The notes under the pieces were generated by a model, which made no database searches, had not been told where the DNA came from, and saw only the letters and a program-made list of their open reading frames with translations. Both the position numbers and the translations under genes were made by a program. Shown in pieces: positions 12,685-37,660 of a stretch of 64,000 bases of DNA; positions within the stretch are counted from its first letter, which is position 1; every line of letters begins with the position of its first letter. Origin of the DNA: Candidatus Doudnabacteria bacterium (GTDB lineage Bacteria; Patescibacteriota; Doudnabacteria; UBA920; O2-02-FULL-48-8); contig JBBCGO010000001.1 in NCBI GenBank assembly GCA_037200925.1, forward strand, positions 888,235 to 952,234, written 5' to 3'.

Positions 12685-12795
12685 AGTTTAAGACGATTAT
12701 TCAGGTAAAATGTTACAAAGCCAGATTTTATTTTACCATAAATTGCGTAAATTGACTTTTAACCCAATTTAAGCCAAAATTAGCTGTAATAACTC

Positions 12796-12849
12796 TGTCA
12801 TTCCGGACTTGATCCGGAATCCAGATCCTGAAACAAGTTCAGGATGACA
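12796..12849. repeat. MITE/RPE-like palindromic element, copy A (two hairpin modules bounded by TGTCAT...ATGACA).
   Basis: tgtcattccggacttgatccggaatcc (stem attccgg/ccggaat) followed by gatcctgaaacaagttcaggatgaca (stem atcctgaa/ttcaggat). Homologous modules recur at 24080-24104 and 33804-33876. Confidence 0.6.
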
Positions 12850-12858
12850 GGGCGACGA

Positions 12859-12950
12859 GGAGAGTTGGCCGAGTGGCTTAAGGCAGTGGATTGCTAATCC
12901 ACGGGTGTCTAAAAAACGCCGCACAGGTTCGAATCCTGTACTCTCCGCCA
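12859..12950 (+). tRNA. tRNA-Ser (anticodon GCU), type II.
   Basis: GGAGAGT...ACTCTCCGCCA with anticodon loop TTGCTAA, a long variable arm and T-arm CAGGTTCGAATCCTG. Confidence 0.85.
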
Positions 12951-13112
12951 ATAAGAATTAGATGAATTTAATCGGATTCGAACGGGTTGAAGCGAGACAA
13001 GTCATCAGACGAAGTCGAGCGTCGACAAACGCGAGCAAGCGCAGCGTTTGGCGCAACCCAGTCCGCGCGAGCATCAGCGAGCGCTGAAGAATCCTGTACT
13101 CTCCGCCAATAA
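12931..13112. repeat. 24-nt perfect direct repeat of the tRNA-Ser(GCU) 3' end (12931-12954 and 13089-13112) flanking a 134-bp G+C-rich insert.
   Basis: gaatcctgtactctccgccaataa occurs twice. This is att-site-like duplication of a tRNA 3' end. The intervening segment contains the 18-mer GGATTCGAACGGGTTGAA, also found at 41245-41262. Confidence 0.6.
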
Positions 13113-13126
13113 AATTTAAGTTTACA

Positions 13127-13333
13127 ATGAATAAAAGGCATACAGTGTATCACAAAGACGGCAGTGTTTGGGCCAAAGGTAAAATGTCGGGCAGCGTACC
13201 GGATGGTTATTGGGAATGGTTCCGGAAAGACAGGACAAAAATGCGGTCCGGATATTTTAAAAAAGGCAAACAAACCGGAAAATGGACCACTTATGATAGA
13301 ACCGGAAAAGTGGTCAAGGTAACTAATTTTTAA
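13127..13333 (+). CDS. Small MORN-variant/YwqK-like repeat protein.
   Basis: 68 aa with repeated G-x-W-x-x-Y/W motifs (DGSVWAKGKM..GYWEWFRKD..SGYFKKGKQTGKWTTYDRTGKV). Confidence 0.4.
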   Translation: MNKRHTVYHKDGSVWAKGKMSGSVPDGYWEWFRKDRTKMRSGYFKKGKQTGKWTTYDRTGKVVKVTNF

Positions 13334-13345
13334 TTTTTTTGGACC

Positions 13346-14056
13346 TTACCCGTGCGCGGCGGTCAGGAGCCAGACTTCCTGTGCGTGATCATGTTTCAAA
13401 AGTTTTGCCAGTTCATTGGCTGTAGATCCTGAAGTGACCACATCATCCACCAGCAGGATCTTTTTGTTTGATGCATCGCCGATCAAACCAAAGGCGTTTT
13501 CCATGTTACGTTTTCGTTCTTCTGCTTTGAGTTTGACTTGCGGCTTTGTGAATTTTTGTCGCAACACAAGTTTATTGTCCACGTTGAGTTGCAGGTTTTC
13601 AGCAAGTTTACCGGCTAATAATTCTGCCTGATTGAAGCCGCGCCAGTTGAAGCGACGGGCATGCAATGGCACTGGAACAATGGTAAAGTCCCGGAAATAT
13701 TCGGCCAGCTCCTGCTTTTTTATCTCTTCCAAAATTGTTTCAGCCAGAGGAAGGCTTAGGTCGGAAATAAAGTTGTATTTGAAAGTCTCAATGATCTTAT
13801 TGACTTGCCGGTCTTTGTAGGGAAGAGCTGCAATACTGCCGTCTATTGTGTTTTTGGTTTTGCAACTAAGGTGCGTTTTGCCGAAAGGCGAAGCTGTCTG
13901 GCAGACAAGGCACTGCTGCTTATCCAATCTCGGCAATTCCGTAAGGCACTTATCGCAAAGATACAAGCCGTCCGCGCCGCAGAGGAGGCAAGAGATCGGA
14001 AAAAGCAGGTCAAGAAATTCTTGGCCTGCTTTTTTGAGGATATTTTTTACATCCAT
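13346..14056 (-). CDS. comF: ComF-family protein (double zinc-ribbon plus phosphoribosyltransferase domain).
   Basis: CxxC pairs at the N-terminus (CLLCGADGLYLCDKC, CLVCQ) and PRTase motif 'ILLVDDVVTSGSTANE'. Confidence 0.65.
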   Translation of the reverse strand: MDVKNILKKAGQEFLDLLFPISCLLCGADGLYLCDKCLTELPRLDKQQCLVCQTASPFGKTHLSCKTKNTIDGSIAALPYKDRQVNKIIETFKYNFISDLSLPLAETILEEIKKQELAEYFRDFTIVPVPLHARRFNWRGFNQAELLAGKLAENLQLNVDNKLVLRQKFTKPQVKLKAEERKRNMENAFGLIGDASNKKILLVDDVVTSGSTANELAKLLKHDHAQEVWLLTAAHG

Positions 14057-16576
14057 TTATGCCCGTGCTAATTCAACCTGTTTGATCTGGATAGCATCAT
14101 TAGCAACCGTGATCTTCGCCTCCGACATTTCGGCGATTTCACCGGTAATGATCTTTTCAGCCAGAGTGTCTTCGATCGTTTCCTGAATGTTGCGGCGGAT
14201 GAGACGCGCGCCTTGCGCCGGATCGTAACTTTTATCCGCTATGAACTTCAGCACTTCGCGGTCAAATGATAGGGTTATATTTTGCTGTTTTAATATCCGC
14301 TCCACCAGCCGGTTCAGTTCCAGGCTGACGATCTTCCGGATCTCTTCCATTCCCAAGGGGCGGAAAACAATGATCTTGTCGATACGATTGAGAAGCTCGG
14401 GCCGCATAGCCTCGCGCAGCGAAGATAAAACCTTGTCTTTCACCCGGTCGTATTCATGTTCGGCTTTTACCCGCACGTCCTCCTCGGTTTGGGTATTGCG
14501 GTCCTGCGAAAAGCCAAAGCTGCCGGCAGTGCGGGTCAGTTCGCTCATTCCGATGTTGGAGGTCATGATGACCACAGTGTTGCGGAAGTTGATCCTTTTT
14601 CCCGCCGCATCCGTCAGCTCGCCCTCTTCCAGGATCTGTAAAAGAATGTTGAATACGTCAGGGTGCGCTTTTTCAATTTCATCGAACAGGATCACGGCAT
14701 AGGGTTTTTTGCGTATCTCTTCGGTCAGCCGGCCGCCTTCCTCATAGCCAACGTAGCCGGCTGGCGCGCCGATCAATCTTGCCACATTGTGCCGTTCCAT
14801 GAATTCGGACATATCCACGCGCACCAGAGCGTCTTTGTTCTCAAACACTTCTTCAGCCAAAGCCTTGGCGGTCTCGGTCTTTCCCACGCCCGTAGGGCCT
14901 AAGAAAAGGAAAGAGGCGATAGGCCGTTTGGGTGAGGCGATACCTGCTCTGGAGCGCCTGATGGCCGAAGCGATCTGTTTGGTGGCCTCGTCCTGGCCCA
15001 CGATGCGGGTCTGCAGGGTTTTTTCCAGGCCGATAAGTTTTTTGCTCTCGGATTTTAGAAGTTTGGTCAGCGGGATCTTTGTGATATTAGAAACAGTACG
15101 GCCGATATCCTCAGCAGTGATCTGTATGTTGGCGGAGGTCTTGCGGCCCAGGGTTTTTTGGTATTCCTGTTTCTGTTTTTTCAGCTTGTCTTCCTGCGAC
15201 TTTAAATGCAGCGCTGTGGTGAAATCCTGCAGCATCACAGCTTTGGTCTTTTCCTCTTCCAGGCGCTTCAGTTCACTTTCGATCTTTTTCACGACCCGGA
15301 TATTGCGGGTCTTGGTGTTCAAAGTTTTGCTGTACGCCGCGGTTTCGTCGATCAGGTCCAGGGCCTTATCGGGCAGAAAACGGTCGGTCAGATAACGGGA
15401 CGACAGTTCCACAGCCGCTTTGATGGCTTCATCTGTGATCACGACATTATGGTGGCGCTCGTAATTTTCCCGAAGGCCACTTAAGATCTCCAAAGATTCT
15501 TCGTTGGACGGCTCTTCCACCAGGATCGGCTGGAAGCGCCTTTCCAGCGCCGCATCATGCTCAATGTGTTTTTTATATTCAGAAAGGGTTGTGGCCCCGA
15601 TCACTCGGATCTCGCCGCGGGCCAGCGCAGGCTTTAAGATATTGGCCGCATCCAAAGAACCGGTCGTAGCTCCTGCTCCGACAATGGTGTGCAGTTCGTC
15701 AATGAATAAAATGATGTTTGAATTGTCCCTGACTTCATCGATAACTTGTTTTAAACGTTGTTCAAATTCTCCGCGGAACATAGAGCCGGCCACGACCAGC
15801 GCCATGTCCAAAGTCAGGATCTTTTTATCAGCCAGCGTATCCGGGATCTCCTGTTTGGAAATGGCCAGAGCCAGGCCTTCAACGATCGCGGTTTTGCCGA
15901 CCCCCGGTTCGCCGATCAGCACGGGGTTATTTTTGGTGCGGCGATTAAGAATGGAGATCAGGCGTTCTATCTCGTTCTTGCGGCCGATGACCGGATCGAT
16001 CTTGCCCTTCAGAGCTTTTTTGGAAAGGTCCGAGGTGAAATAATCCAGAGCCGGCGTCTTGGTATTTTTTTCAGGAGCGGGCAATTCCGCCTGCTCGTCG
16101 ACATTCAGCAGATCGGGAAACCTGGAAACATTCTCAAAAATTGACAGCAGATTTTTCCGCAGCTCAGACACTGAAACTTTCAGACCCAGCAGCATGGTTT
16201 TCGCTTCGTCGGTCTCCATGTCCGTGATCCCATACAAAAAGTGCTCAGTGCCGATGAACTGGTATTGGTAGCGGCTGGCGATGATGGCGGCCTTCTCAAT
16301 GACCTCGCGCAGATTGTTGGAGAGCTTCGGCTGCCATTTATCAGAGATATGGTTTTGGTTCAGGCTGATGATCTGCTGCTTGACGGTTTCGCCGTTCACG
16401 CGGCTTTTCAGCAGGATTTCCGAGGCAAACGAAGCCTTCTCCTCTACGATGCCGTAAAGCAGATGCTCGGTACCGATGTGGTCATGGTGCAGATCTTCGG
16501 AAATGCGCTGTGAAGTTATCAAGGCGCTTTTCGCCCGACTGGATAGCCGTTCTAGAATAAATGAAAAGTGGTTCAT
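14057..16576 (-). CDS. clpC: ClpC/ClpB-family AAA+ chaperone (Clp ATPase with two nucleotide-binding domains).
   Basis: Duplicated Clp-N repeats, D1 Walker A 'GEPGVGKT', D2 'GPTGVGKT', sensor 'GARLIRR', 839 aa. The short middle domain favours ClpC over ClpB. Confidence 0.8.
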   Translation of the reverse strand: MNHFSFILERLSSRAKSALITSQRISEDLHHDHIGTEHLLYGIVEEKASFASEILLKSRVNGETVKQQIISLNQNHISDKWQPKLSNNLREVIEKAAIIASRYQYQFIGTEHFLYGITDMETDEAKTMLLGLKVSVSELRKNLLSIFENVSRFPDLLNVDEQAELPAPEKNTKTPALDYFTSDLSKKALKGKIDPVIGRKNEIERLISILNRRTKNNPVLIGEPGVGKTAIVEGLALAISKQEIPDTLADKKILTLDMALVVAGSMFRGEFEQRLKQVIDEVRDNSNIILFIDELHTIVGAGATTGSLDAANILKPALARGEIRVIGATTLSEYKKHIEHDAALERRFQPILVEEPSNEESLEILSGLRENYERHHNVVITDEAIKAAVELSSRYLTDRFLPDKALDLIDETAAYSKTLNTKTRNIRVVKKIESELKRLEEEKTKAVMLQDFTTALHLKSQEDKLKKQKQEYQKTLGRKTSANIQITAEDIGRTVSNITKIPLTKLLKSESKKLIGLEKTLQTRIVGQDEATKQIASAIRRSRAGIASPKRPIASFLFLGPTGVGKTETAKALAEEVFENKDALVRVDMSEFMERHNVARLIGAPAGYVGYEEGGRLTEEIRKKPYAVILFDEIEKAHPDVFNILLQILEEGELTDAAGKRINFRNTVVIMTSNIGMSELTRTAGSFGFSQDRNTQTEEDVRVKAEHEYDRVKDKVLSSLREAMRPELLNRIDKIIVFRPLGMEEIRKIVSLELNRLVERILKQQNITLSFDREVLKFIADKSYDPAQGARLIRRNIQETIEDTLAEKIITGEIAEMSEAKITVANDAIQIKQVELARA

Positions 16577-16621
16577 AAAGGGTTATACTATATATGTATT
16601 ATACCATGTGTGTCAAGCCAT

Positions 16622-17041
16622 ATGAATATCGAAGAAAAAGCCAAAAGTTTGCTTAAGATCCGGCCTCACCATTCGGAAGAACTGGCGAAAAAACTTCTGA
16701 TGCGCGGTTTTGACCGTGAGCAGGTCAATGCCGTTATTGCTAAATTAACAGATGAAAAGCTGATTGACAATCAGCAGTTTGCACAAAATTATTTGGACAG
16801 TTTGATAAGATATAAAAGTTTTGGTTTCTACGGTCTCAAGGCCAAACTGATGCAGCGGGGGATTGATGGCAAAGATGCGGAAGCTTTGTTGAAAGAAAAT
16901 TTGCCCATTGAGACAGAAAAAGAAATCGCCCTGAAAGCGGTTGAAAAATCGCAAGAAAAAGATAAAGCGAAACTGGCTCAAAAATTGTCCAGGAAAGGGT
17001 TTCGGAGCGAGGTGATTAGGGAAGTGGTCAAAACAAAATGA
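16622..17041 (+). CDS. recX: RecX regulatory protein.
   Basis: Repeated three-helix RecX motif 'LLMRGFDREQVNAVIAKL...IDNQQFAQNYLDS'. The ORF-track start at 16568 extends into the clpC overlap, so the Met at 16622 is preferred. Confidence 0.65.
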   Translation: MNIEEKAKSLLKIRPHHSEELAKKLLMRGFDREQVNAVIAKLTDEKLIDNQQFAQNYLDSLIRYKSFGFYGLKAKLMQRGIDGKDAEALLKENLPIETEKEIALKAVEKSQEKDKAKLAQKLSRKGFRSEVIREVVKTK

Positions 17042-17082
17042 TTATGATAGCATAAGCAAACAAAACAGAAGAAGGGATTTGT

Positions 17083-17430
17083 ATGGATGTAGATGCGGTC
17101 ATCAAATACCTGCAGGTGACGCAGCAGGATTTGAGTTGGATCACTCCGCCAAATTGGTCAGGACGCCGATATGTCGCTTATGAGATCTATGGAACTTTTA
17201 GAATAAGCGGATTTAACCGGTCATGCCCGCTGTCGCGGATCATAGATCAAGGCGTAGATCGATTAAATAGATTTGTGCCAGTCCCGGAACAAAAAAGGAT
17301 CATCCAGGCTTCTTTTGCGGTAACAGATTTTTTTGATCTTACTTCGAACCACAACACGATGCTTCGAAGAATTAGCCGTCAAGAACTGGAATTTGAAGTT
17401 TCGACGCATCCATTTTTGCCGTTCACATAA
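17083..17430 (+). CDS. Hypothetical protein.
   Basis: 115-aa ORF with a terminator hairpin downstream (17432-17458). No recognisable domain. Confidence 0.3.
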   Translation: MDVDAVIKYLQVTQQDLSWITPPNWSGRRYVAYEIYGTFRISGFNRSCPLSRIIDQGVDRLNRFVPVPEQKRIIQASFAVTDFFDLTSNHNTMLRRISRQELEFEVSTHPFLPFT

Positions 17431-17470
17431 GAGAAAGCGCTGTGCTTTTCTCTTTTTTATTACTGCATTT

Positions 17471-17500
17471 GCTCATGACTTTAGTCATGAGCATGCTCAG
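17471..17500. repeat. Palindromic motif built from GTCATGAGC/GCTCATGAC units, copy 1.
   Basis: gctcatgac-ttta-gtcatgagc-at-gctcag. It shares at least a 16-nt core with the perfect 22-nt palindrome at 37639-37660 and lies at the edge of the G+C-rich island. Confidence 0.6.
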
Positions 17501-17534
17501 TAGCAAAAAAAGAGCCAACCGCTTGCGCAGTTGG

Positions 17535-17843
17535 CTATTTGAACCCCAGGTCAGCCGCCTTCGACGGTCCGAGATGGACCATCAGTCCATGAGACCAGAG
17601 GACGTCACGTAGATCGTACAGCGATTTTCTTCCGAAATTGCCGACGCGCATGAGCTCGCCTTCGTCGGCGACCAGGATCTTGCGCAGGGACCACCCCGAC
17701 AAAGCTTGCTGTACGCGCAGGGGGAGTTCGGCCCGAATCTCGGCTTCCGTTGCTTTCGCTCCGATTTTCCGGATCCGTCCCGACAATCGTGCACGCCGTC
17801 CATGCAGTTCGGTTGCTGTTGGTTCGCTCCAGATCATTAACAC
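17535..17843 (-). CDS. Orphan RNA polymerase alpha-subunit C-terminal-domain (alpha-CTD)-like protein.
   Basis: 'ELPLRVQQALSGWSLRKILVADEGELMRVGNFGRKSLYDLRDVLWSHGL' aligns with RpoA-CTD 'LDLSVRSYNCLKRAGI...MKVRNLGRKSLEEVKAKLEELGL'. Only 102 aa with no alpha-NTD. G+C-rich, with an AGGAGG SD 8 nt upstream. Confidence 0.5.
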   Translation of the reverse strand: MLMIWSEPTATELHGRRARLSGRIRKIGAKATEAEIRAELPLRVQQALSGWSLRKILVADEGELMRVGNFGRKSLYDLRDVLWSHGLMVHLGPSKAADLGFK

Positions 17844-17935
17844 TGCCTCCTGTTGGCTTTTGAGGAGGTACCGAACTTTAAAGTCCGGAACCGCCTACTA
17901 TCAGAATAAGAGCAAGGTCCTATCTGTAATAACTA

Positions 17936-17965
17936 ATTTTACTCATAGTTTTGTCATTTTGTCAA
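17936..17965 (-). promoter_or_regulatory. Sigma-70-type promoter for the alpha-CTD-like gene.
   Basis: Minus strand TTGACA-18 nt-TAAAAT (plus-strand tgtcaa at 17960-17965 and atttta at 17936-17941). Confidence 0.4.
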
Positions 17966-18021
17966 TAGTTAAATAAACAAAAAAGACCCCGGACCAAGTC
18001 CGGGGCGGGGTGTATTAGGGA

Positions 18022-18927
18022 TTATTTCTCCATCTCTTCCAATCTTTTGATGCGTTCCTGAATAGGGGGGTGGGTGTCGAACAGGCGCGACAGGGCAGAA
18101 CCTGCCTGCCGGACATTGAGATTTTGTTTGAAAGGATTGACTATATAGAGGTGCGCCGTGGCATTATTAGCTTCTTCTAAAGGCTCGGTATCAGCCGCGA
18201 TTTTTTTGAGCGCCGAAGCCAAACCTTCCGGATAGCGCGTCAGCAAAGCGCCTGAGGCGTCAGCCAGATATTCGCGCTTGCGCGAAATTGCCAGTTGGAT
18301 CAGAGTTGCGGCGATGGGCGAGAGGATGGCTAGCACCAAACCGACTACCATAAAAATTACGCCGGCTTCACCTTCATTATTGCGGCGCCTGCCGCCGAAG
18401 AAACTGGCTCTCAACATCCAGTTGGACAAAAGCGAAACCACGCCAACCAGCACCACAATAATTGTTGAAAGCCGGATGTCATAATTACCGACATGCGACA
18501 GCTCGTGGGCGATCACGCCTTCCAGTTCCGGTTTGGTCAGTTTGCTTCGCAGTCCTGTCGTGATGCAGACCACGGCGTGCTTCGGGTCGCGGCCGGTGGC
18601 AAATGCATTGGGAGCCGTATCATCTATAAGATAGATTTTTGGTGTCGGCAGGCCCGCGGCGATGGCCAGGTTTTCAACTGTGTGGTAGAGCTCCGGATCA
18701 TCGGCGCGCTGGATCTGTTTTGCGTGCGACATGGAGAGAATGATCTTGTCCGAATAGAAATAACTGGTCAGGCTTAAGCCAACGGAAAAGATCACGGCGA
18801 TCGGCAAAATACCCGGCGAGTCAAAATACTGGCCGAAGAAGTAACCGAGCGCAATGATCAGAACCAAAAAGAATGTTATCAGTAGCGCTGTTTTGCGTTT
18901 GTTGGAAGAGATTTCAGAGTAGATCAT
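18022..18927 (-). CDS. htpX: Zinc metalloprotease HtpX (peptidase M48).
   Basis: 'HELSHVGNYD' HExxH motif, N-terminal TM helices, 301 aa. Confidence 0.8.
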   Translation of the reverse strand: MIYSEISSNKRKTALLITFFLVLIIALGYFFGQYFDSPGILPIAVIFSVGLSLTSYFYSDKIILSMSHAKQIQRADDPELYHTVENLAIAAGLPTPKIYLIDDTAPNAFATGRDPKHAVVCITTGLRSKLTKPELEGVIAHELSHVGNYDIRLSTIIVVLVGVVSLLSNWMLRASFFGGRRRNNEGEAGVIFMVVGLVLAILSPIAATLIQLAISRKREYLADASGALLTRYPEGLASALKKIAADTEPLEEANNATAHLYIVNPFKQNLNVRQAGSALSRLFDTHPPIQERIKRLEEMEK

Positions 18928-19473
18928 TTAGAATTGCACATTCACCGGCTGCTGGATGGCCTTGTTGTCATCGTCAAAGAAAGTTTTGGCGGTAAACCCG
19001 AGCATGCCCGCAAACAGGTTTGATGGGAATGTCTGAATTTTGGTATTGTAGTCGCGGACGTTGCCGTTATAGAACCTTCTGGCCGCCTGAATCTTATCTT
19101 CAGTGTCGGTCAGATCTCCCTGCAGCTGCAGGAAATTCTGGTTGGCTTTCAGTTCCGGATAATTTTCCGCCACGGCGAACAAAGAGCGGATGGTCTGCGA
19201 CAGCTGGTTTTCAGCAGCTAGTTTCTGTCCGGGGGTCGGCGCTGCCATGGCAGTGGCGCGGGCAGCGGTAACCTTAGTAAACACGCCTTCCTCATGTTTG
19301 GCGTATCCTTTGACCGTGTTGACCAAATTCGGGATCAGGTCGTAGCGGCGTTTGAGCTGGACTTCTATGTCTGACCAGGCTTCGTCCACGCGATTGCGCG
19401 ACTGGACCAGGCCGTTGTAAATAGCAATACCGGCTACAACCAGCACGACAACGACAATTAGCAAATAAATCAT
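18928..19473 (-). CDS. lemA: LemA-family membrane protein.
   Basis: N-terminal TM then 'YNGLVQSRNRVDEAWSDIEVQLKRRYDLIPNLV' LemA signature. The stop is adjacent to the htpX start. Confidence 0.75.
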   Translation of the reverse strand: MIYLLIVVVVLVVAGIAIYNGLVQSRNRVDEAWSDIEVQLKRRYDLIPNLVNTVKGYAKHEEGVFTKVTAARATAMAAPTPGQKLAAENQLSQTIRSLFAVAENYPELKANQNFLQLQGDLTDTEDKIQAARRFYNGNVRDYNTKIQTFPSNLFAGMLGFTAKTFFDDDNKAIQQPVNVQF

Positions 19474-19536
19474 ATTTTTCTCCTTTCTCTATCTTATTAT
19501 AGATATGGTATAATAAATTATCAATAACCAGTAATT

Positions 19537-19821
19537 ATGGCAATTTCTATAGAAGAAGTCAACAGGATCGCAAAGCTGGCCCGCTTATCATTTAGCGAAG
19601 ACCAGAAACAAAAATTGCAGCAAGAGTTGTCGGCAATTCTGGATTACGTGGACCAGCTGAAAGAAGTGGAAGGCAGGGTCAGTCCCGAAGCTGCAGATCC
19701 GGGTGCGGTTAACCTGATGCGCAACGACGTGGCGCAGGAAACCGCGGCACCGGAAGATTTTTTGAAGCAAGCGCCGGCTCGAGAGGGAAATTTTATTAAA
19801 GTAAAGAGTGTTTTAGACTGA
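19537..19821 (+). CDS. gatC: Asp/Glu-tRNA amidotransferase subunit C.
   Basis: 94 aa, 'ISIEEVNRIAKLARLSFSEDQKQKL...ILDYVDQLKEV', first gene of gatCAB. Confidence 0.8.
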   Translation: MAISIEEVNRIAKLARLSFSEDQKQKLQQELSAILDYVDQLKEVEGRVSPEAADPGAVNLMRNDVAQETAAPEDFLKQAPAREGNFIKVKSVLD

Positions 19822-21670: not shown

Positions 21671-21671
21671 A

Positions 21672-23150: not shown

Positions 23151-23151
23151 T

Positions 23152-23739: not shown

Positions 23740-24630
23740 TCAGGCTGACAGGTATTTTCTAACAAGCCGTTCGGCTTGTTTTTGATTTTTGATCCAATGA
23801 ATGCGGCTGTCGGTCTTAAACCAGGTCGTCTGGCGTCTGGCGAATTTGTGAATTGCTGATTTGAGCTGTTCAATCATCTGCCCGTAGGTTAAGTAGCCTT
23901 GCAGGTATAAAGAAACAAAGCGATATTCCAGGCCCATTTCTTGCAGACGTTTGTGAGCAACTTTTTGCTTAAGAAGTTTTTTGACTTCGAAGACCAGTCC
24001 TTGTTTAAAGCGGTTTTCTAAACGCTCGTCGATCAGTTTATACAGTTTTGGCAAATCTTTTTTTAAACCGAGTAAAAGAGATCCTGAACCAAGTTCAGGA
24101 TGACGCAATGGCGGCACCGGCTTCCCCGTGGACTTAATGATCTCAATGGCACGGATGAGGCGGCGCGGGTTCTGGCGGTCAATATTCATAGCGCGCCGGG
24201 GATCCAGTTTTTTCAGGATCTTAAAAAGTTCGGCAGGTGTTTTTTTATTCAATCGGTTGCGTAATTTGAAATTGGGCTTAACCCCGGGAATCTGCAAGTC
24301 GTCGATTGTGGCGTAAATATAGAAAGGCGTGCCGCCGACCAGAAACGGCAGTTTATTTTTTTCCCTGATCTGTTTGATCGCCTTTAAAGCCTTTGGTTTG
24401 AAATCCGCTACGGTGAATTGTGTTTTGGGCGAAGCAACATCAAGCAGGTGATGACGGACTTGCTTTTGTTCTTTTTTCGTGACCTTGCCCGTGCCGATGT
24501 CCATGCCTTTATAGACTTGTCTGGAATCTGCCGAAATTATCTCGCCTTGGAATTTTTGAGCAAGTTTAATTGCCAGGCTTGATTTGCCCGAGGAGGTGGG
24601 ACCCAGAATGACTACCAATCCGGGCTTCAT
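23740..24630 (-). CDS. miaA: tRNA dimethylallyltransferase MiaA.
   Basis: P-loop 'ILGPTSSGKSSLAI' and 'ISADSRQVYKGMDIGTGK'. It contains a partial copy of the palindromic repeat (24080-24104) encoding RHPELGSGS. Confidence 0.8.
   Translation of the reverse strand: MKPGLVVILGPTSSGKSSLAIKLAQKFQGEIISADSRQVYKGMDIGTGKVTKKEQKQVRHHLLDVASPKTQFTVADFKPKALKAIKQIREKNKLPFLVGGTPFYIYATIDDLQIPGVKPNFKLRNRLNKKTPAELFKILKKLDPRRAMNIDRQNPRRLIRAIEIIKSTGKPVPPLRHPELGSGSLLLGLKKDLPKLYKLIDERLENRFKQGLVFEVKKLLKQKVAHKRLQEMGLEYRFVSLYLQGYLTYGQMIEQLKSAIHKFARRQTTWFKTDSRIHWIKNQKQAERLVRKYLSA
24080..24104. repeat. Partial MITE/RPE-like hairpin module, copy B, inside the miaA coding sequence.
   Basis: gatcctgaaccaagttcaggatgac is a 24/25 match to 12824-12848. 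Confidence 0.5.
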
Positions 24631-25054: not shown

Positions 25055-25065
25055 CAGCGGTTTTT

Positions 25066-26874: not shown

Positions 26875-27048
26875 AGATTTTGGTTAAAAAATACCCAAAC
26901 GTCCTATGACGTTTGGGATCCTCGCGGATGGTTCCACCCAATCTTTGCTTCATTTTTTCCGTAACGCCGGAATTGTGCGGAGAACTCCATGGTTGGTGGC
27001 CATTTCTGCGTTCTCAAAACTTAAATAGATTATATAGCTCCCGGCGGT

Positions 27049-30000
27049 TTAGGGCAAGTTCGAGCCAAGAAGCTCTTTGATCTTCGATTTTAGTTCCTCA
27101 TTCAGGTCTATCCGGAACGGCGTTTTGATCTTTTGCTGGTCGATCATAAGATTTACATTCAGATCGCCGGGAGCCGATTCAAACAGCTGTTTTAATTGGC
27201 CAAACAGTTCATCGGATGCGGCTGTCGGAATTTTGATAGTGACGGATGATTCTTGGGAAGGAGCTGTGGTTTCCGCGAACAGTTTTATCGTGTCAGCCAG
27301 AAATTTCGGCTCGCCGTCCTTGTCCGACATCTTGCCGGTCATGAGCACGATCTTTTCCGCCACGATAAGATCCTTGAACTGGCTGAATAAATTTGGAAAA
27401 ACGATGACTTCTATTGTGCCGGTGGTGTCCTCCAGATCGATAAACGCCATTTGATCGCCTTTTTTTGTAAGAATTTTCTGGACCCTGGTAATAATTCCGC
27501 CAATGGTAGCGGTTGGTGTTCTGTTTTCTATGACTTGTTTGATAGATAAGGCCGATCTTTGCAATTTTGCAGCGTGTTCGGCAAGCGGATGAGAGGTAAC
27601 ATAAAGCCCCAGCAGTTCTTTTTCCCAAGCCAAACGTTCCCGCTCGGTTGCCGGTTCCACGTCGCGCAACTTCAATTTTGCATCAGGGATAAAATTTTCG
27701 CCAAATAAACTTGTTTGATTGTCAGCCGCCGCTTTTTGCAAATTTCGCGCAAACTCCAGAATTATTTCCGTATTGGCCAAAAGCTTGTTGCGCTCTCCCA
27801 AAGCGTCCAAAGCGCCTGACTTAGCCATTGCTTCCCAGGATTTTTTGTTGAAATTGCGCGTTTGCACCCGTTTGACGAAATCTTCGACGGAAGAAAATTT
27901 CCCGCCGGCTTTCCGCTGTTCGATAATGATGCTGATGATATCCGAACCTAGATTTTTGACGGCAGTCAGCCCGAACCGGATATTGCGTTCGTCTATGACC
28001 GTAAAGTTGGCCAGGCTTTCATTCACATCCGGTGGCAGGACCTGGATGCCCATGATTTTGCATTCTTCAACCGCTTCGGCAATGGTTTCCATATCGCCTG
28101 ATTCGGCCGTCATCAGGGCGGCCATGAATTCCACGGTGTAATTGGCTTTCATGTAAGCCGTTTGGTAGCTGACAATGCCGTACGATGCGGCGTGGGCTTT
28201 GCCAAATCCGTAGGCCGCAAATGGCTCGATCAGTCCGAACAGCTGTTCCGCCCGGTAAGGCTCCATTCCATTTTTTACGCATCCTTTAATGAACTTTTCT
28301 TTTTGTTTGGCCATCTCAGCAGGGATCTTTTTACCCATAGCTTTGCGGAGTTTATCCGCTTCTTCCCACGAATAACCGGCAATATTAACAGCCGTTGTGA
28401 GTACGTCGTCCTGATACACCAGTAATCCCAGCGATCTTCCAAGATATGCCTGCATGCGCGGATCGAAATATTCGATCTTGCTGCGCTTATGCTGCCGGGT
28501 AATATATTCAGGAATGATCCCCATTGGGCCGGGGCGGTATAAAGCGATCATGGCCATGATGTCGAAAATGCTTTTTGGTTTTAGGTCCATCAGGTACCGC
28601 GTGATGCCGGACGAGCCCATTTGGAATACGCCGAATGTGTGGCCTTCGGACAGAAGTTTGAAAGTTTTTTCATCCGGATGAGGAAGATTTGCGATATCGA
28701 TCTGCACTCCCTGTCTTTTCTCTGCAATTTTTACCGCGGCTTCCAGGGTGGACAAATTGCGGATGCCTAAAAGATCGAGTTTGACCACTCCCAATGCTTT
28801 TTCGCCGCTGGCATTGACGTCCAATGCGTACATATCGTATTGCGTGATGACGCGTTCGCCATCCGGTTCTTTTTGCAGCGGCATGTAGTCAGTCAGTTCG
28901 GTCGGGGTAATGACAATGCCGGCGGCATGCACAGAAGCGTGCCGTGCATTACCCTCCAGTTTTTTGGCAATGTCGAGGATCTTTTTTGTTTCCGGATCTT
29001 TTTCGTAAGCGGCTTTCAGGTCGGTATTTAAGTCCATGGCTTTGTCCAAGGTCATATGAAAACCCTGTTTGCCTGTAGGGATCATTTTGGCGATCTGGTC
29101 GCATTTGCCGTAGGCAACGCCCAACGCCCGCCCGACATCCCTTACCGCGGCTCTTGCCATCATAGTCCCGAAGGTAATGATCTGTGCGACTTTTTCAGCT
29201 CCGTATTTTTTTGTGATATAAGAGATCACTTCATCGCGGTGGTTGTCGGCAATATCCAGGTCGATATCGGGAGGAGTAGGGCGGTGTTCGGTTAAAAATC
29301 TTTCGAACGGCAGTTCATAATAAAGAGGGTCTACATTTGTAATGCCTAAGATGCGCCCGACAATGGACCCGGCCGCGCTTCCTCTGGTATTGGTGATGGC
29401 GCCAAGCTTATGAGCTCCTTCGACCACGTCCGCGACCATGAGAAAATAAGTGTCAAATCCTTTATTGATTATAATATTAAGCTCGTAATCAATTCGTTGT
29501 TTGATATCATCGGGGACAGCGCCATCCTTGCCGTAAAGCGGCAAAGCGCGGGCGTAAGTCAGCTCCCGCAGGTACTCGGCAGTTGTTTTGCCCTCCGGCA
29601 CCTCAACTTTAGGAAAGTATCTTTGATTGGTTAAAATTTTAAGATTGCATTTTGCGGCAACCAAGGCCGTATTGGCCACGGCTTCGGGCAGATCCTTGAA
29701 TCGTTCATACATTTTTTCCTCGGTCTTAAGCGACAGGTCGTATCCTCGCATATCCATGCGGTCCGTATCAGAAGTAGTCCTGCCCGTGCCGATGCAGAGC
29801 AGAACATCCTGCGCTTCAGCATCCTGCGGTTCAATATAATGGCAGTCAGCGGTGGCGACCAGCGTCAGATTTTCAGCTTTAGCCAAAGCGGCAAGTTTTT
29901 GGACCAGTTTTTTTTCATTGGCGTCGGGCAGGCGGCTGTTGCGCTGGATCTCAATATAATAATTATCCGGCCCGAAAATATCCAGGTATTTTTGCAGGAT

Positions 30001-30510
30001 TTCGCGGGTTTCAGAATCGGATTTGTTCATGACGGCCCGGGCCAACTCGCCTCGCTGGCAGCCTGATAGGGCAATCAGCCCCTCGCTGTGTTTTTTTAAA
30101 ACCTCCAGGTCAATCCGGGGTTTATAGTAATAGCCGTCGATATGGGCTACGGTCGTAAGTTTTAAAAGATTTTTGTATCCTGCCTGATTGGCCGCCAGCA
30201 GAGTCAAATGAAAATAGTCAGAATCAATCTTGCCATTTTTTTCTTGCAATGTCCGCGGGGCTACATAAGCTTCAACGCCGATGATCGGTTTGATCCCGGC
30301 TTCTTGGCATTTATTATAGAATTCAATGGCGCCGTACATCACCCCGTGGTCGGTCAAAGCCAAACTGTCCATGCCGAGTTTCTTGGCGGTGGATACCAGT
30401 TCGTTTATTTTCGGCAGTCCATCAAGCAGGGAAAAGTGCGAATGGACGTGCAAGTGAGTGAATTTGGACATAAGTAAGTCCATTATGGCAAAAGTCGCGT
30501 TACAGCGCAA
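27049..30510 (-). CDS. dnaE: DNA polymerase III alpha subunit.
   Basis: PHP domain 'HLHVHSHFSLLDG' plus polymerase core and OB-fold, 1153 aa. The start may be an internal Met (MDLLMSKF...). Confidence 0.85.
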   Translation of the reverse strand: MRCNATFAIMDLLMSKFTHLHVHSHFSLLDGLPKINELVSTAKKLGMDSLALTDHGVMYGAIEFYNKCQEAGIKPIIGVEAYVAPRTLQEKNGKIDSDYFHLTLLAANQAGYKNLLKLTTVAHIDGYYYKPRIDLEVLKKHSEGLIALSGCQRGELARAVMNKSDSETREILQKYLDIFGPDNYYIEIQRNSRLPDANEKKLVQKLAALAKAENLTLVATADCHYIEPQDAEAQDVLLCIGTGRTTSDTDRMDMRGYDLSLKTEEKMYERFKDLPEAVANTALVAAKCNLKILTNQRYFPKVEVPEGKTTAEYLRELTYARALPLYGKDGAVPDDIKQRIDYELNIIINKGFDTYFLMVADVVEGAHKLGAITNTRGSAAGSIVGRILGITNVDPLYYELPFERFLTEHRPTPPDIDLDIADNHRDEVISYITKKYGAEKVAQIITFGTMMARAAVRDVGRALGVAYGKCDQIAKMIPTGKQGFHMTLDKAMDLNTDLKAAYEKDPETKKILDIAKKLEGNARHASVHAAGIVITPTELTDYMPLQKEPDGERVITQYDMYALDVNASGEKALGVVKLDLLGIRNLSTLEAAVKIAEKRQGVQIDIANLPHPDEKTFKLLSEGHTFGVFQMGSSGITRYLMDLKPKSIFDIMAMIALYRPGPMGIIPEYITRQHKRSKIEYFDPRMQAYLGRSLGLLVYQDDVLTTAVNIAGYSWEEADKLRKAMGKKIPAEMAKQKEKFIKGCVKNGMEPYRAEQLFGLIEPFAAYGFGKAHAASYGIVSYQTAYMKANYTVEFMAALMTAESGDMETIAEAVEECKIMGIQVLPPDVNESLANFTVIDERNIRFGLTAVKNLGSDIISIIIEQRKAGGKFSSVEDFVKRVQTRNFNKKSWEAMAKSGALDALGERNKLLANTEIILEFARNLQKAAADNQTSLFGENFIPDAKLKLRDVEPATERERLAWEKELLGLYVTSHPLAEHAAKLQRSALSIKQVIENRTPTATIGGIITRVQKILTKKGDQMAFIDLEDTTGTIEVIVFPNLFSQFKDLIVAEKIVLMTGKMSDKDGEPKFLADTIKLFAETTAPSQESSVTIKIPTAASDELFGQLKQLFESAPGDLNVNLMIDQQKIKTPFRIDLNEELKSKIKELLGSNLP

Positions 30511-30551
30511 AAAGTGATATAATTAGTCAAGATTTAAGACTTGAAACAAAT

Positions 30552-31394
30552 ATGGCACTAACGGATAACGACAGGATTCAGGAGTTATTTCTGGTCGTCG
30601 GCGACAAACTCGCTCCCGTGAACAAAAAATGGTGGTATGCCCTGGTCATTTTTCTGATCGTGCTGATCCCGTTTTATTATTTGGCGAAATATTCCTTCGT
30701 ACAACTGATAATGAGCGGATATCATGCGCCGGAAATAGTTTATACTGCGGGGATCCAGGAATCTTTACAGATAATCGACAAGAAAATTTTTATTCTTGCG
30801 CCGAACACATATTCAGGTTACGTGAAAATAAAAAATATCAATCTGGAATGGGGAGTGCCCAGCCAGGATTATACGGCGGAATTTAAAACTTTGGGCGGGA
30901 CCAGTATTGCAAAAATAAGCGATTCAACGTTTATCCTTCCGGCTTCCGAAAAACTAATCGTTTTTCCGCGTTTTACCTCACAAACCAAACCCGATGAGAT
31001 CGACGTGACTTTGGGTGAGACGCAGTTTATCCAAAAACCCGATGTGACGGTCAATTATGAACTTCAACGCGTGAATCTTCAGAATAACCCCGCAGGCTTT
31101 TCTATGACGGCCGGGATAAAAAACACAATGGCTTTCACGGTCGGGCAGATCGATCTGCCTGTAGCTGTTTACGACAGCAATAATAATATAGTTGCCGTCA
31201 ATTTTACGACCATTAACGATGTTCTGTCCGGTGAAACCAGGACATTCACATATTCCTGGCCGGGCGCAGTGGCCGGCGCAGTCCGGGCGGAGATCAATCC
31301 GGAGATCAATATATTTGACCGGAATATATTTTCGCAGCCCGCCGGAGTCTCGCCATTCGACAGTTCAACGCAGCCCGCGCCCGCATCTCCATGA
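30552..31394 (+). CDS. Membrane-anchored hypothetical protein.
   Basis: N-terminal TM 'WWYALVIFLIVLIPFYYLA' and a beta-rich ectodomain. Its stop overlaps the start of the SEDS gene. Confidence 0.4.
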   Translation: MALTDNDRIQELFLVVGDKLAPVNKKWWYALVIFLIVLIPFYYLAKYSFVQLIMSGYHAPEIVYTAGIQESLQIIDKKIFILAPNTYSGYVKIKNINLEWGVPSQDYTAEFKTLGGTSIAKISDSTFILPASEKLIVFPRFTSQTKPDEIDVTLGETQFIQKPDVTVNYELQRVNLQNNPAGFSMTAGIKNTMAFTVGQIDLPVAVYDSNNNIVAVNFTTINDVLSGETRTFTYSWPGAVAGAVRAEINPEINIFDRNIFSQPAGVSPFDSSTQPAPASP

Positions 31395-32494
31395 GAAATT
31401 GGTTTGCGAATTTCCGTTATTTTGACCTTTATATTTTCGGCAGCAGCACTCTGCTGCTGATTTTGGGTTTGCTCATGATCTATTCCACCACGCTTGCCAG
31501 CCCGACCAATCTTCTAAGCCATCAGCTGGTGTTCGCCGTCCTGGGATTTATTGCGATGTTCCTGCTGGCTTTTTATGACTACAGAAAACTTAAAAAGAGT
31601 ACGGGGTTTTTCTATGTCCTGATCATATTAAGCCTGCTGCTGGTGTGGTTCTTGGGCCATAATGTCCGCGGATCGACCCGGTGGATCGATCTTGGGATCT
31701 TCCGCGCCCAGCCGGCGGAGTTTGCCAAACTGATAATGGTTGTGATCATGGCCAAATTCCTGGATCAAAGCGGCGAAAAATTGAAAGACATCAGGTATGT
31801 TCTCCTGTCGGCTGTTTATGTCAGCATTCCGGCAATACTGGTCTTGATCGAGCCGGACCTGGGTTCGGCCCTGGTTATTTTTTTCACCTGGCTGGGCATG
31901 CTGCTGTTCTCCAAGATGAATAAAAAACATTTGGGCATCCTGCTTTTAATTGCCGTCCTGGTTTCTTCCTTCAGCTGGTTCTTTGTGCTCCATGATTATC
32001 AGAAAAACCGCATTTATACTTTTTTGGACCCGAGCCAGGATCCGCGGGGCAGCGGCTATAATGTCCTGCAATCAATAATCGCCGTAGGCTCAGGCAGCAT
32101 TACGGGCCGGGGAGTGGGCAGGGGGCTGCAATCCCAGCTGAAATTCTTGCCGGAGCGGCAAACTGACTTTATCTTCGCTTCTACTGCAGAGGAATTGGGC
32201 TTGGTGGGAAGCCTGTTCATCCTGAGCATGTTCGCCATATTGTTTTTCGGCCTGGTCCGGGCGATCAAGCATGCCAGGGATAACTTCGGAATGTATCTGA
32301 CCCTGGGGATTTTTTTCATGCTATTGTCGCAAGTGCTGATAAATATCGGCATGAATGTCGGACTGCTTCCCGTCACCGGCATTCCTTTGCCGCTTTTAAG
32401 TTACGGCGGATCCTCACTTCTGACCACTATGGCGGCACTGGGATTAGTGCAAAGCGTTGTGGCCCGCCAGAAGGCTGTGAAGTTCGGCAACTGA
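31391..32494 (+). CDS. ftsW: SEDS-family peptidoglycan polymerase (FtsW/RodA).
   Basis: Ten TM helices and conserved 'LPERQTDFIFA', 'GLLPVTGIPLPLLSYGGSS'. Confidence 0.75.
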   Translation: MRNWFANFRYFDLYIFGSSTLLLILGLLMIYSTTLASPTNLLSHQLVFAVLGFIAMFLLAFYDYRKLKKSTGFFYVLIILSLLLVWFLGHNVRGSTRWIDLGIFRAQPAEFAKLIMVVIMAKFLDQSGEKLKDIRYVLLSAVYVSIPAILVLIEPDLGSALVIFFTWLGMLLFSKMNKKHLGILLLIAVLVSSFSWFFVLHDYQKNRIYTFLDPSQDPRGSGYNVLQSIIAVGSGSITGRGVGRGLQSQLKFLPERQTDFIFASTAEELGLVGSLFILSMFAILFFGLVRAIKHARDNFGMYLTLGIFFMLLSQVLINIGMNVGLLPVTGIPLPLLSYGGSSLLTTMAALGLVQSVVARQKAVKFGN

Positions 32495-32540
32495 TCTTTG
32501 GTTGACGCCAAAAATATTAGCCCTTACAATATAAGCATCT

Positions 32541-32897
32541 ATGCCGAAGTTTGATTTCAACAAAATCGTCCAGTGGCTGGCTTATATTTTGAAGTGTCCG
32601 GTTTGCGGGCACCAGTATACGCCGGAACAAACCAAGATCATTGATACGGGGGAAGAAAAACCGCTTTCCGGCCGCAGCCTTCTGGTCCACACTGACTGTG
32701 ACCGGTGCAAAAGCTCGGTGGTATTTTCCATTGCGATTGACGGACCCGAGATCTTTTCCATCGGCATGGTGACAGACCTGACCAGCCAGGATACATCCAA
32801 ATTTAAAAATGCCAAACCTATCACCACGGATGAAGTTTTGGCTACTCACGAATTTTTAAGGGGTTTTGACGGGGACTTCAAATCTGCTTTGAAATAG
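32541..32897 (+). CDS. Zinc-ribbon hypothetical protein.
   Basis: CPVCGHQY...CDRC four-Cys ribbon. Confidence 0.35.
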   Translation: MPKFDFNKIVQWLAYILKCPVCGHQYTPEQTKIIDTGEEKPLSGRSLLVHTDCDRCKSSVVFSIAIDGPEIFSIGMVTDLTSQDTSKFKNAKPITTDEVLATHEFLRGFDGDFKSALK

Positions 32898-32937
32898 CTT
32901 TGACCTATTCATCAGAAGATGTTATTATATTGCGGCT

Positions 32938-33639
32938 ATGGAAAATATTGCAATTGAAGCGACCAAACGAACTATTTTGGGCAAACGGGTAAAAACATTG
33001 CGTCAGGCAGGAAAGCTGCCCGGCATTTTGTATGGGCACAATACAGAGACAGCAGAAATCGAAATTAAGGAAAAAGATTTTTCCAAGGCATTTAAGCAGG
33101 CGGGTGAATCAACGCTGGTCAATCTGGTTATGGACGGCAAAACCACGCCGGTCTTGATCTACGATGTCCAGCACCACTATCTGAACGGCCAGCCACTGCA
33201 TGTGGATTTTTATGCCGTGAACATGACCGAAAAACTGAAGGTCCGCGTGCCAATCCAGTTCACCGGCGAATCGCAGGCGGTAAAGGGCTTAGGCGGGACT
33301 TTGCTTAAGAATCTTTCCGATGTTGAGGTGGAATGTTTGCCGGCTGATATTCCTAAATATTTTGAAATCGACATCAGTTCGTTGAACACATTTGAAGATG
33401 CTATCCGCATCCAGGACCTGAAAGTCAGCGACAAGGTAACAATTCTGGCTAAACCGGATGAAGTGATCGTCAATGTCGCGCCTCCCCGAACCGAAGAAGA
33501 GATGAAAGAATTATCCGAAAAACCGGTTGTTGAAGATGTAACCTTGGTTGAAGGGGTATTAAAGCCGGAAGAAACTCCTGAGGCAGTAGCAGGGGATGAG
33601 AAGGCTGAGAAGCCGGAGAAAAAAGAAGAGAAAAAATAG
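32938..33639 (+). CDS. rplY: 50S ribosomal protein L25 / general stress protein Ctc.
   Basis: 'RTILGKRVKTLRQAGKLPGILYG...LHVDFYAV' with a Glu/Lys-rich C-terminal extension. Confidence 0.75.
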   Translation: MENIAIEATKRTILGKRVKTLRQAGKLPGILYGHNTETAEIEIKEKDFSKAFKQAGESTLVNLVMDGKTTPVLIYDVQHHYLNGQPLHVDFYAVNMTEKLKVRVPIQFTGESQAVKGLGGTLLKNLSDVEVECLPADIPKYFEIDISSLNTFEDAIRIQDLKVSDKVTILAKPDEVIVNVAPPRTEEEMKELSEKPVVEDVTLVEGVLKPEETPEAVAGDEKAEKPEKKEEKK

Positions 33640-33641
33640 CT

Positions 33642-34550
33642 TTAGCTTATAGTTGATAGGTTTTGTAGAATTGCAAACCTCTCAAATCCGGATAAATCTT
33701 TATAAATTTTTGTTTCAAAAGCTGGTAAATATTTTTTTACCAGCTTTTTGATTGCCGGGCCGTGGGTCTCGCCGATCTCAAGGAAGAGAAATTGAGGCGC
33801 TCTTGTCATCCCGGACTTGATCCGGGATCCAGATAAAGAACTTTTTGTCTGGATTCCCGCTTTCGCGGGAATGACAAAAGAAATTTGCTTGAAAAGCTCT
33901 TCCAATAATCCGAGTCCTTTTTTTTCCGCGATTAAAGCTTGTTTCGGTTCAAACTTGGTTGATGCGTCAGTTTCTTCAGCCAGGTAAGGCAGATTGGCCA
34001 CAATAATATCGAAATGCTGTTTTTTCCACGGGGTCAAAAGCGAGCCGTGTTTGAAAATAATTTTAACTTTATGCTGTTTGGCATTCTTTTTTGCTATTAA
34101 TAAAGCGGCTGGTGAAATGTCCGAGGCGAAATATCGATTTTTTGACCCAAGTTTTTTTGCCACGCTTACGATAATATTTCCTGAGCCGGTCCCGACATCC
34201 AGAATGTTTAAGCCGTTTTTGATGCCAATAGTCTTCATGGCCAATTCCACCAGACCCTCGGTTTCGGGGCGGGGGATCAATACGTTTTCATCAACGTAAA
34301 AACCAAGGCCATAAAATTCTTTTTTTTTGGCCAGATAAGCAACAGGCCAGCCCATCAGCCTGCGGGTTAGAAATATATGAAATCGTTTTTCCAGCTTCTG
34401 ACTGACCGTTTGGCCGGGATTGGCAAGCAGATATTCTTTGGGCTTATCCAAGACATGCGACAAAAGCACTTCCGCATCCAGATCCGGGGAAGCGCTTTTT
34501 GATCTGGATAATCTTTTTGCGGCTAAATTTAGCAGTTCCCGAACCGTCAT
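33642..34550 (-). CDS. prmC: Release-factor glutamine methyltransferase PrmC/HemK carrying an in-frame repeat-element insertion.
   Basis: SAM motif '[11 protein letters not shown]' and a catalytic 'IVANLPY' motif (NLPY rather than NPPY). It overlaps the prfA stop. A 25-aa insert ([25 protein letters not shown]) is encoded by the palindromic element at 33804-33876. Confidence 0.8.
33804..33876. repeat. MITE/RPE-like palindromic element, copy C, inserted in frame in prmC.
   Basis: tgtcatcccggacttgatccgggatcc ... ggattcccgctttcgcgggaatgaca: two hairpins bounded by TGTCAT/ATGACA. The 73 nt plus 2 give 25 codons. Confidence 0.6.
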
Positions 34551-37609: not shown

Positions 37610-37638
37610 GATTGGCTTTTCTTTTTGCTCAGTACCTA

Positions 37639-37660
37639 AGTCATGAGCATGCTCATGACT
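37639..37660. repeat. Perfect 22-nt palindrome AGTCATGAGCATGCTCATGACT (copy 2 of the island-associated motif).
   Basis: Its own reverse complement. The core is shared with 17471-17500. It lies 30 nt after the P4 stop. Confidence 0.65.

Follow-up and report, generated by a model that had tools for sequence, protein, structure and literature searches.

Palindromic repeat units, probably of the CGTC type, lie in frame within prmC and miaA of a Candidatus Doudnabacteria genome

We analysed a 64-kb stretch of a Candidatus Doudnabacteria genome (hereafter the window; all coordinates count from its first letter), an affiliation with this Patescibacteria/CPR group that its PrmC and MiaA homologues bear out. 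In this stretch, an earlier examination of the letters alone, the sequence-only reading, had pointed to a palindromic repeat family at three loci, named elements A, B and C. Five hairpin units sharing one grammar are found at these loci (Table 1). They are probably copies of the CGTC/TGTC repetitive extragenic palindromes (CGTC REPs), or Ssn-related motifs (SRMs), three of them being passengers in tolerant gene loops, and they probably spread through single-stranded DNA (ssDNA) hairpins or by recombination. The units are non-coding, non-autonomous repeats, common almost base for base to bacteria of many phyla, and three of the five lie in frame inside the essential genes prmC and miaA, in loops that tolerate any sequence. 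This kind of repeat was already known. New here are the host lineage, a member of the Candidate Phyla Radiation (CPR), the role of prmC and miaA as hosts, and the repeated occupation of the same loops among Doudnabacteria.

The sequence following each GTCAT of the window was scanned for hairpins. Among the 106 GTCAT sites, five are followed by a perfect stem of 6 to 7 bp and then by ATC, while two others have stems of 4 bp only and no ATC. Every one of the five units comprises an unpaired (C/T)GTC tag, a perfect stem of 8 to 9 bp, a loop of 3 to 5 nt and a C(C/T)N tail. The stems always open with the pairs A-T and T-A, and their sequences vary from unit to unit yet stay self-complementary (TCCGGA, CCTGAA, CCTGAAC, CCCGGA and TCCCGC). 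The tag is TGTC except in U3, where it is CGTC; the tail is CCA in U1, U4 and U5, CTG in U2 and CTC in U3, and tails resembling the last two also occur among units from other genomes. Loops measure 5, 5, 5 and 4 nt in U1, U2, U4 and U5, respectively, whereas U3 can be drawn either with an 8-bp stem and a 5-nt loop or with a 9-bp stem and a 3-nt loop. Elements A and C are inverted pairs of two different units with their tags outward, and element B is a lone unit.

All the module sequences quoted by the sequence-only reading were found at their positions. Searching the window for these modules with up to 3 mismatches gave 2, 2 and 1 matches, with 0 in 100 shuffles each. A covariance model was constructed from 66 distinct units, all from other organisms, and every window position was scored with the filters off. 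The model picked out exactly U1 to U5, with scores of 34.8 to 45.3 bits and E-values from 4e-10 to 3e-7. The earlier claim of a real palindromic repeat family is supported. The next matches were echoes of these loci on the reverse strand, plus one unrelated GC-rich hairpin with an E-value of 0.1. The model detected no degenerate copies in the window, and no units were found in the 10 kb upstream of it. The elements are not assembly artefacts, because an independent Logan assembly (L241) also has the MiaA unit and the PrmC insert recurs in P0001, a 99%-identical protein from another NCBI assembly.

Table 1. Coordinates of the hairpin units, of the elements that they form and of the two host genes
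Feature	Position	Strand	GTCAT start	Description	Match
U1	12796-12824	+	12797	TGTC tag, stem ATTCCGGA/TCCGGAAT, loop CTTGA, tail CCAG	45.3 bits, E 3.7e-10
U2	12821-12849	-	12848	TGTC tag, stem ATCCTGAA/TTCAGGAT, loop CTTGT, tail CTGG	37.2 bits, E 6e-8
Element A	12796-12849			U1 + U2 head-to-head heterodimer, tags outward, tails sharing 4 nt; intergenic	
U3 (element B)	24077-24105	-	24104	CGTC tag, stem ATCCTGAA(C)/(G)TTCAGGAT, tail CTCT	34.8 bits, E 2.7e-7
U4	33804-33832	+	33805	TGTC tag, stem ATCCCGGA/TCCGGGAT, loop CTTGA, tail CCAG	44.5 bits, E 6e-10
U4-U5 spacer	33833-33848			16 nt, ATAAAGAACTTTTTGT; forms a third stem with both tails	
U5	33849-33876	-	33875	TGTC tag, stem ATTCCCGC/GCGGGAAT, loop GAAA, tail CCAG	39.7 bits, E 1.2e-8
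Element C	33804-33876			U4 + U5 heterodimer, tags outward, 16-nt spacer; in frame within prmC	
miaA	23740-24630	-		296 aa, hosts U3	TIGR00174 E 4e-73; MiaA entries of the PDB
prmC	33642-34550	-		302 aa, hosts element C, overlaps the end of prfA (34547-35602)	TIGR03534 E 4e-62

CGTC REPs, as described by Di Nocera, De Gregorio & Rocco (2013, PMC3733652), have a CGTC tag, often TGTC (CCTC being allowed), a stem of 8 to 9 bp that nearly always begins with complementary AT, a loop of 4 to 5 nt and a tail near CCA. They form mostly head-to-head (HH) dimers with the tags outside, among which heterodimers are common, and they have no associated transposase; dimers located within genes encode 20 to 30 aa. 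They were described from 5 phyla, mostly from Alphaproteobacteria, and include the Neisseria dRS3 repeats and the Rickettsia palindromic element RPE-6 (both CGTC-1) as well as RPE-4 (CGTC-4) (PMC3733652). The tag, stem, tail, HH-dimer and heterodimer features are all present among U1 to U5, with the geometry of CGTC-1/CGTC-2, and element C also shares the coding of 20 to 30 aa by a dimer within a gene. The differences are the combination of a 3-nt loop and a 9-bp stem in U3 and the two tails that read CTG or CTC instead of CCA. More recently, dRS3 was redefined as an oriented sequence, the NTS (CGTCATTCCCGCGMAVGCGGGAATCYRG), and generalised to SRMs (Chenal et al. 2025, PMC11893778). U5 (GTCATTCCCGCGAAAGCGGGAATCCAG) fits the NTS consensus at all positions but the first, which is T instead of C. 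The published SRM search pattern, HGTCWYN(0-2)YYVSBRHN(0-5)WNVSBRGN(0-2)RNCYNB (PMC11893778), matches U4, U5 and one unrelated site (10382-10413) in the window, i.e. 3 matches against 0.26 expected. Our literature search retrieved no report of CGTC REPs or SRMs in CPR genomes, and a search for the peptides encoded by the units retrieved no papers.

Element C lies in frame in a PrmC loop of which other PrmC proteins have a short form, and the rest of the protein is intact, as the sequence-only reading had recognised. On the prmC strand, the palindrome runs from GTC ATT to ATG ACA over 72 nt, that is 24 in-frame codons, the leading F codon of the insert giving only its last T to it; 3 of the 6 frames of the element are open. 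The insertion of 25 codons proposed earlier is thus confirmed as to its frame but not as to its size, since the palindrome spans 24 codons and the net gain is 22 residues over the closest insert-free orthologues (P0002, P0003 and P0010, 64-65% identical). The gene passes the equivalog cut-off, its match to TIGR03534 coming as two stretches broken at the insert, and it also matches HemK in the PDB. Against the HemK structures of T. maritima (1NV8/1SG9), residues 222-252 stand opposite 6 residues, a gain of about 25. In the AlphaFold model of PrmC, with a mean pLDDT of 89.3, the sole stretch below 50 comprises residues 227-244, modelled as a coil between a helix (208-223) and a strand (253-257). 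The model thus makes the insert a surface loop that borders the Rossmann fold and is predicted to be disordered. An identical insert is present in P0001 (GCA_015689235.1). An exact look-up of the window protein returned no record. A metagenome scan with the PrmC alignment returned, among the matches listed, only PrmC genes of other bacteria with 29-44% identity. The sequence-only reading had also noted that this PrmC carries NLPY instead of NPPY. The observation is correct, but it lends no weight to this particular gene: 119 of the 120 closest homologues have NLPY too, and only P0001 deviates in an alignment of 36 Doudnabacteria-type proteins. NLPY is therefore a trait of the clade and no defect.

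In single-strand predictions, elements A and C each form two or three hairpins on a closing stem. The predicted folding energies are -16 kcal/mol (z -5.1) for element A and -23.8 kcal/mol (z -7.8) for element C as DNA, and -25.1 kcal/mol (z -4.1) and -38.3 kcal/mol (z -7.9), respectively, as RNA; the RNA folds are strong. A reading of the elements as terminators was rejected.

Element B was found to be a complete single unit on the coding strand of miaA (CGTCATCCTGAACTTGGTTCAGGATCTCT, 24105-24077). It is in frame, reads RHPELGSGS and falls within the linker that joins ...TGKPVPP to LLLGL..., in a gene that is intact and passes the equivalog cut-off. Comparison with solved MiaA structures and with 120 orthologues showed that this linker is hypervariable, ranging from 8 to 29 residues. 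It has 10 residues here and 9 to 11 in most unit-free orthologues. Element B is thus a unit embedded in a variable linker, with almost no length added and no net insertion. Between the miaA genes of the window and of locus L323, the proteins are 76% and the DNA 72% identical, while the unit is identical at 25 of 26 positions. It thereby ranks among the best-conserved 26-mers of the gene despite encoding the most variable segment of the protein. Thus, this sequence was kept or introduced at the DNA level.

The units are widespread outside this genome. Viral contigs were searched with the pattern GTCATYCC-N10-11-GGRATCCAG, which fixes 5 of the 8 stem pairs and leaves three pairs free. At least 120 contigs carry units, and 159 of the 174 pattern matches listed have a perfect stem of at least 8 bp, with compensatory variants being common (CCCGC/GCGGG, CCCAC/GTGGG, CCGGC/GCCGG, CCATC/GATGG). 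At least 120 stretches from GTDB genomes contain the exact 25-mer of U2 and U3 (with one N). Among the matches listed, these include Patescibacteria (Gracilibacteria, Magasanikbacteria, Saccharibacteria, Wolfebacteria and others), Dependentiae, Bacteroidota, Alpha- and Gammaproteobacteria, Campylobacterota, Spirochaetota, Elusimicrobiota, Firmicutes, Chloroflexota, Armatimonadetes and Melainabacteria, with a metagenome-assembled genome of Rickettsiaceae (L221) among the Proteobacteria. The family is thus not peculiar to the Doudnabacteria lineage, contrary to what had been suggested from the window alone.

SRMs are the targets of Ssn nucleases. SsnA is a 94-aa single-domain GIY-YIG protein (cd10448) that binds the motif and cleaves immediately upstream, on ssDNA only and on one strand only; ssn genes are typically bracketed by motifs, and ssn is found in 81% of the genomes with more than 200 motifs (PMC11893778). 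We searched 241 unit-carrying loci (120 from the viral scan, 120 from the genome scan, and L241) with an Ssn hidden Markov model (HMM), and a small GIY-YIG homologue was detected in 7 of them. Three of these Ssn-like proteins were scanned against Pfam; they are 94-97 aa long and match PF01541 with E-values of 2e-14 to 2e-18. Three of the genes lie between units, which recovers in other genomes the unit-ssn-unit layout of the Neisseria system, and two more have units at one end. In one of the three, that of locus L213, the flanking unit is of the CCTGAA type, the same as U2 and U3. In a protein-database search with six Ssn-like sequences, 7999 of 8000 candidates matched, and neither Patescibacteria nor Doudnabacteria figured among the 120 listed. 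An involvement of Ssn in the present organism is therefore suggested by analogy with the rest of the family.

Small GIY-YIG genes of the Ssn-like kind were also observed on the IMG/VR viral contigs L002, L059, L085 and L110, directly adjoining units in the first three. Phages or prophage regions could ferry a module of units and Ssn between phyla.

We then considered the PrmC and MiaA loops in related genomes by scanning 240 homologues (120 for each protein) for 7-mers encoded by the units. In the MiaA linker, HPELxSGS was detected in 6 proteins and peptides of the SFPRKRES type in 6, with the variants RYPELVSGS, RNPELDSGS and RNPELVSGS in further proteins. One linker has the peptide of the reverse orientation, DSRFRGND, some contain dimers (e.g. 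RHPEFISGSQDQIPKQVRND), and peptides typical of other GTCAT-initiated palindromes are also present. In tree order, the MiaA proteins carrying units are scattered among unit-free relatives; the trees of both proteins are crude neighbour-joining trees. For PrmC, the protein P0026, from a different subclade, has a dimer of a U5-type and a U4-type unit whose position and order match those of element C. This dimer is decayed, with a GTCAC tag, stem mismatches and scores of 21 and 28.7 bits, compared with 39.7 and 44.5 bits here. The nearest relatives of P0026 and of the window protein are insert-free. In other orthologues, the same loop, which precedes the strand carrying FLEIG, holds unrelated palindrome-like peptides (SPPFKG.., ..NLRGGG.., ..RDLRSLAM..), and PrmC has a second insertion hot spot after LAKxL. 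The simplest reading of these sequence comparisons is a recurrent colonisation of permissive loops, in which repeated insertion is filtered by selection for the few loops that can accommodate additional residues.

Other palindrome peptides were noticed in the loops of PrmC (alignment A1, columns ~170-222 and 345-416) and MiaA, such as ..FASEAKQS..EIASSLRSSQRQ.., ..SPPFKGE.., ..PPLNLRGGG.. and ILSGAKDL..SASPQND. Colonisation of these loops is therefore not limited to CGTC units.

The explanation that we favour, and hold to be probable, is that the five units are CGTC REP copies whose insertion was tolerated in three cases within gene loops. The units would spread as ssDNA hairpins on which a small Ssn-type GIY-YIG nuclease acts in trans, a step that we propose because units border Ssn genes in other genomes and are bound and cleaved by Ssn as ssDNA; alternatively, copies might be exchanged by recombination. 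Within genes, units would persist only if their length is divisible by 3, their frame is open and the loop that receives them is permissive, and the inserts would then be translated as passenger peptides without harm to the enzymes. Several observations weigh against this explanation. The copy density is low, with 5 units in ~74 kb (window and 10 kb upstream). No Ssn-like gene was detected in these 74 kb, the window being covered by a six-frame HMM search (best E-value 1.7), and no other GIY-YIG, RAYT or transposase gene was found by Pfam among 23 selected open reading frames (ORFs) of the window and the Pfam-marked gene calls of the upstream 10 kb. None of the genome-scan loci labelled as Patescibacteria has a nearby Ssn gene. 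Ssn was shown to cut motifs, not to transpose them, its role in Neisseria being to restrict transforming ssDNA (PMC11893778). U1 to U3 fail the strict SRM pattern; U1, checked by hand, misses one stem position. Finally, the argument for translation is drawn from the intact frames alone.

The recurrence of units at the same sites could also reflect a site-directed turnover, in which units are targeted to, or swapped at, set sites through their conserved tag and tail, the loops acting as diversifying cassettes. At least three unit types or orientations occupy one MiaA linker position among the 120 orthologues, scattered among unit-free relatives, the P0026 dimer recurs in a separate subclade with insert-free neighbours on both sides of the comparison, and palindromic peptides of other types sit in the same PrmC loop of other orthologues. 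However, random insertion followed by strong selection would give the same pattern, as few loops tolerate 9 to 25 extra residues; at least three unrelated palindrome families in the loop favour a permissive-site filter over sequence targeting; and the trees are crude neighbour-joining trees. We thus consider turnover unlikely. A broader proposition, that hairpins in Doudnabacteria, of different unit types and in both orientations according to the sublineage, repeatedly and independently occupy the same loops of PrmC and MiaA, two essential enzymes related to translation, by a targeted or cassette-exchange process that generates loop diversity, possibly without a resident Ssn, is in our opinion rather doubtful. 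We also weighed whether the hairpins could be functional RNAs or regulatory elements selected in place, serving tRNA-Ser in the case of element A and prfA-prmC expression in the case of element C, for example as mRNA or pre-tRNA stabilisers or processing sites. The strong predicted RNA folds would fit such roles, as would two features of element A, its end 9 nt ahead of tRNA-Ser and, upstream of the element, a weak promoter-like site (12752-12780), and RNA-level roles for REPs are considered in published papers. But this site is within chance expectation (1 found, 0.8 expected), no Rfam family reaches the gathering threshold at the elements, no T-run follows the hairpins, Ssn acts on ssDNA and not on RNA, and orthologous genes manage without the elements, while the identical sequence recurs in unrelated contexts and phyla. 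A role as functional RNA is thus very unlikely.

[quoted passage not shown] Elements A and C are indeed short, repeated and bounded by inverted termini of 6 to 7 nt, but their flanks (..AACTC|..|GGGCG.. for A and ..GCTCT|..|AAAGA.. for C) contain no target-site duplication, and the supposed termini are the tags of two independent inverted units, which also occur singly, as in element B, which has no partner, and as singletons in many other genomes. In addition, each element combines two different stems, the scanned ORFs of the window include no transposase, and the published family has none associated with it. The MITE label is thus not retained, and we judge this origin most improbable. Finally, the inserts could be old protein features of PrmC and MiaA, palindromic by appearance only. 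A related segment does exist in PrmC of P0026, which the sequence-only reading would have counted in favour of an ancestral loop, but the DNA of this segment is a decayed repeat dimer. Moreover, the same DNA recurs between genes, as element A, and across many phyla, which we take as refuting, most orthologues lack the segment, the DNA of the unit is far better conserved than its surroundings, and the segment is predicted to be disordered. We give practically no credence to this possibility.

The copies described here, which we regard as CGTC REPs, can be compared with several known systems. As the sequence-only reading had proposed, their behaviour is that of the Rickettsia palindromic elements, which are likewise found in frame, at tolerated sites, in functional protein genes. 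This fits the superfamily comprising RPE-4 and RPE-6, a relationship drawn here from the statement in PMC3733652 and from the one Rickettsiaceae locus (L221) with the U2/U3 25-mer. RPE-1 is alike by behaviour only, since it is longer and belongs to a separate sequence family (PMC3733652), whereas the present units measure 28-29 nt and their dimers 54-73 nt. Unlike Rickettsia, the host here is a free-standing CPR lineage. The Neisseria Ssn system differs by the presence of its ssn gene, not found in 74 kb here, by its copy density and by its link with natural transformation, to which the present organism is not known to have a counterpart. GTAG REPs and BIMEs with RAYT proteins (IS200/IS605-like) are also short tagged hairpins, often in inverted pairs, and are thought to move through recognition of ssDNA hairpins, but the tag here is (C/T)GTC and not GTAG, and no RAYT was found among the scanned ORFs of the window. 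Bacterial MITEs, e.g. Correia elements, are similarly short, repeated, provided with inverted ends and located in or beside genes, whereas here there is neither target-site duplication nor parent IS, and the true repeat is a modular single unit.

These assignments would extend to the CPR a repeat class that has only recently been explained (CGTC REPs and SRMs), and they indicate that Rickettsia-style in-frame colonisation of housekeeping genes occurs in small CPR genomes. Peptides of the unit type, such as RHPELVSGS, in CPR proteins or in short 'hypothetical' ORFs should be read as repeat-derived, and differences in PrmC and MiaA loop length in alignments largely reflect repeat insertions. The patchy occupation of the same sites provides a tractable data set on how repeats move. 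If targeting or cassette exchange were true, selfish hairpins would become a permanent supply of loop variants for reduced genomes.

Element A lies between a divergent gene of the sigma-70 family (12145-12684, minus strand) and tRNA-Ser-GCT (12859-12950, plus strand), 9 nt upstream of the latter. A 60-aa ORF on the minus strand (12769-12951) is antisense to tRNA-Ser and crosses element A (..CHPELVSGSGFRIKSGMT..), which makes it an example of a spurious 'hypothetical protein'. The terminal region of tRNA-Ser-GCT with its 3' flank (24 nt, 12931-12954, GAATCCTGTACTCTCCGCCAATAA) is exactly repeated 158 nt downstream (13089-13112). This repeat, which adjoins element A, resembles the attachment-site scar of an integrative element at the tRNA.

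Other features of the window were also noticed. A structured segment of ~140 nt is present in three copies (52082-52221, 52768-52901 and 63133-63242), located before the start of rplJ (by the Rfam L10_leader at 51967-52088), before the start of rplL and before tRNA-Glu-CTC, respectively. The copies share conserved blocks (ACGAAAAAATTGAGTCGCA, GAGAACAATTTTTTCGAGAGGAG and GCGAAGGTTCGAC.AATTACGACG), between which two hairpins are found whose stems differ from copy to copy with complementarity kept. The segment could represent a leader or promoter module common to the copies, or else an RNA motif not yet described. A second, unrelated palindrome (TTTGCTCATGAC..GTCATGAGCATGCTCA) occurs twice (17453-17510 and 37624-37664), the first copy having 28-nt arms 2 nt apart. 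RecG is encoded by a single gene of 679 aa in the Logan assembly of the same organism (L325, 18182-20221), but it is split into a 425-aa ORF and fragments in the NCBI contig (L326, 18181-19458) and in the window (8226-10266, minus strand); the frameshift may be an assembly error or a strain difference. Finally, a cluster resembling type IV secretion or conjugation systems, with TrbL_3, PrgI, a TraC-like protein and a VirB4/TraG-type ATPase, was observed together with a PIN_3 protein (window 46-7206; L326 7152-10004).

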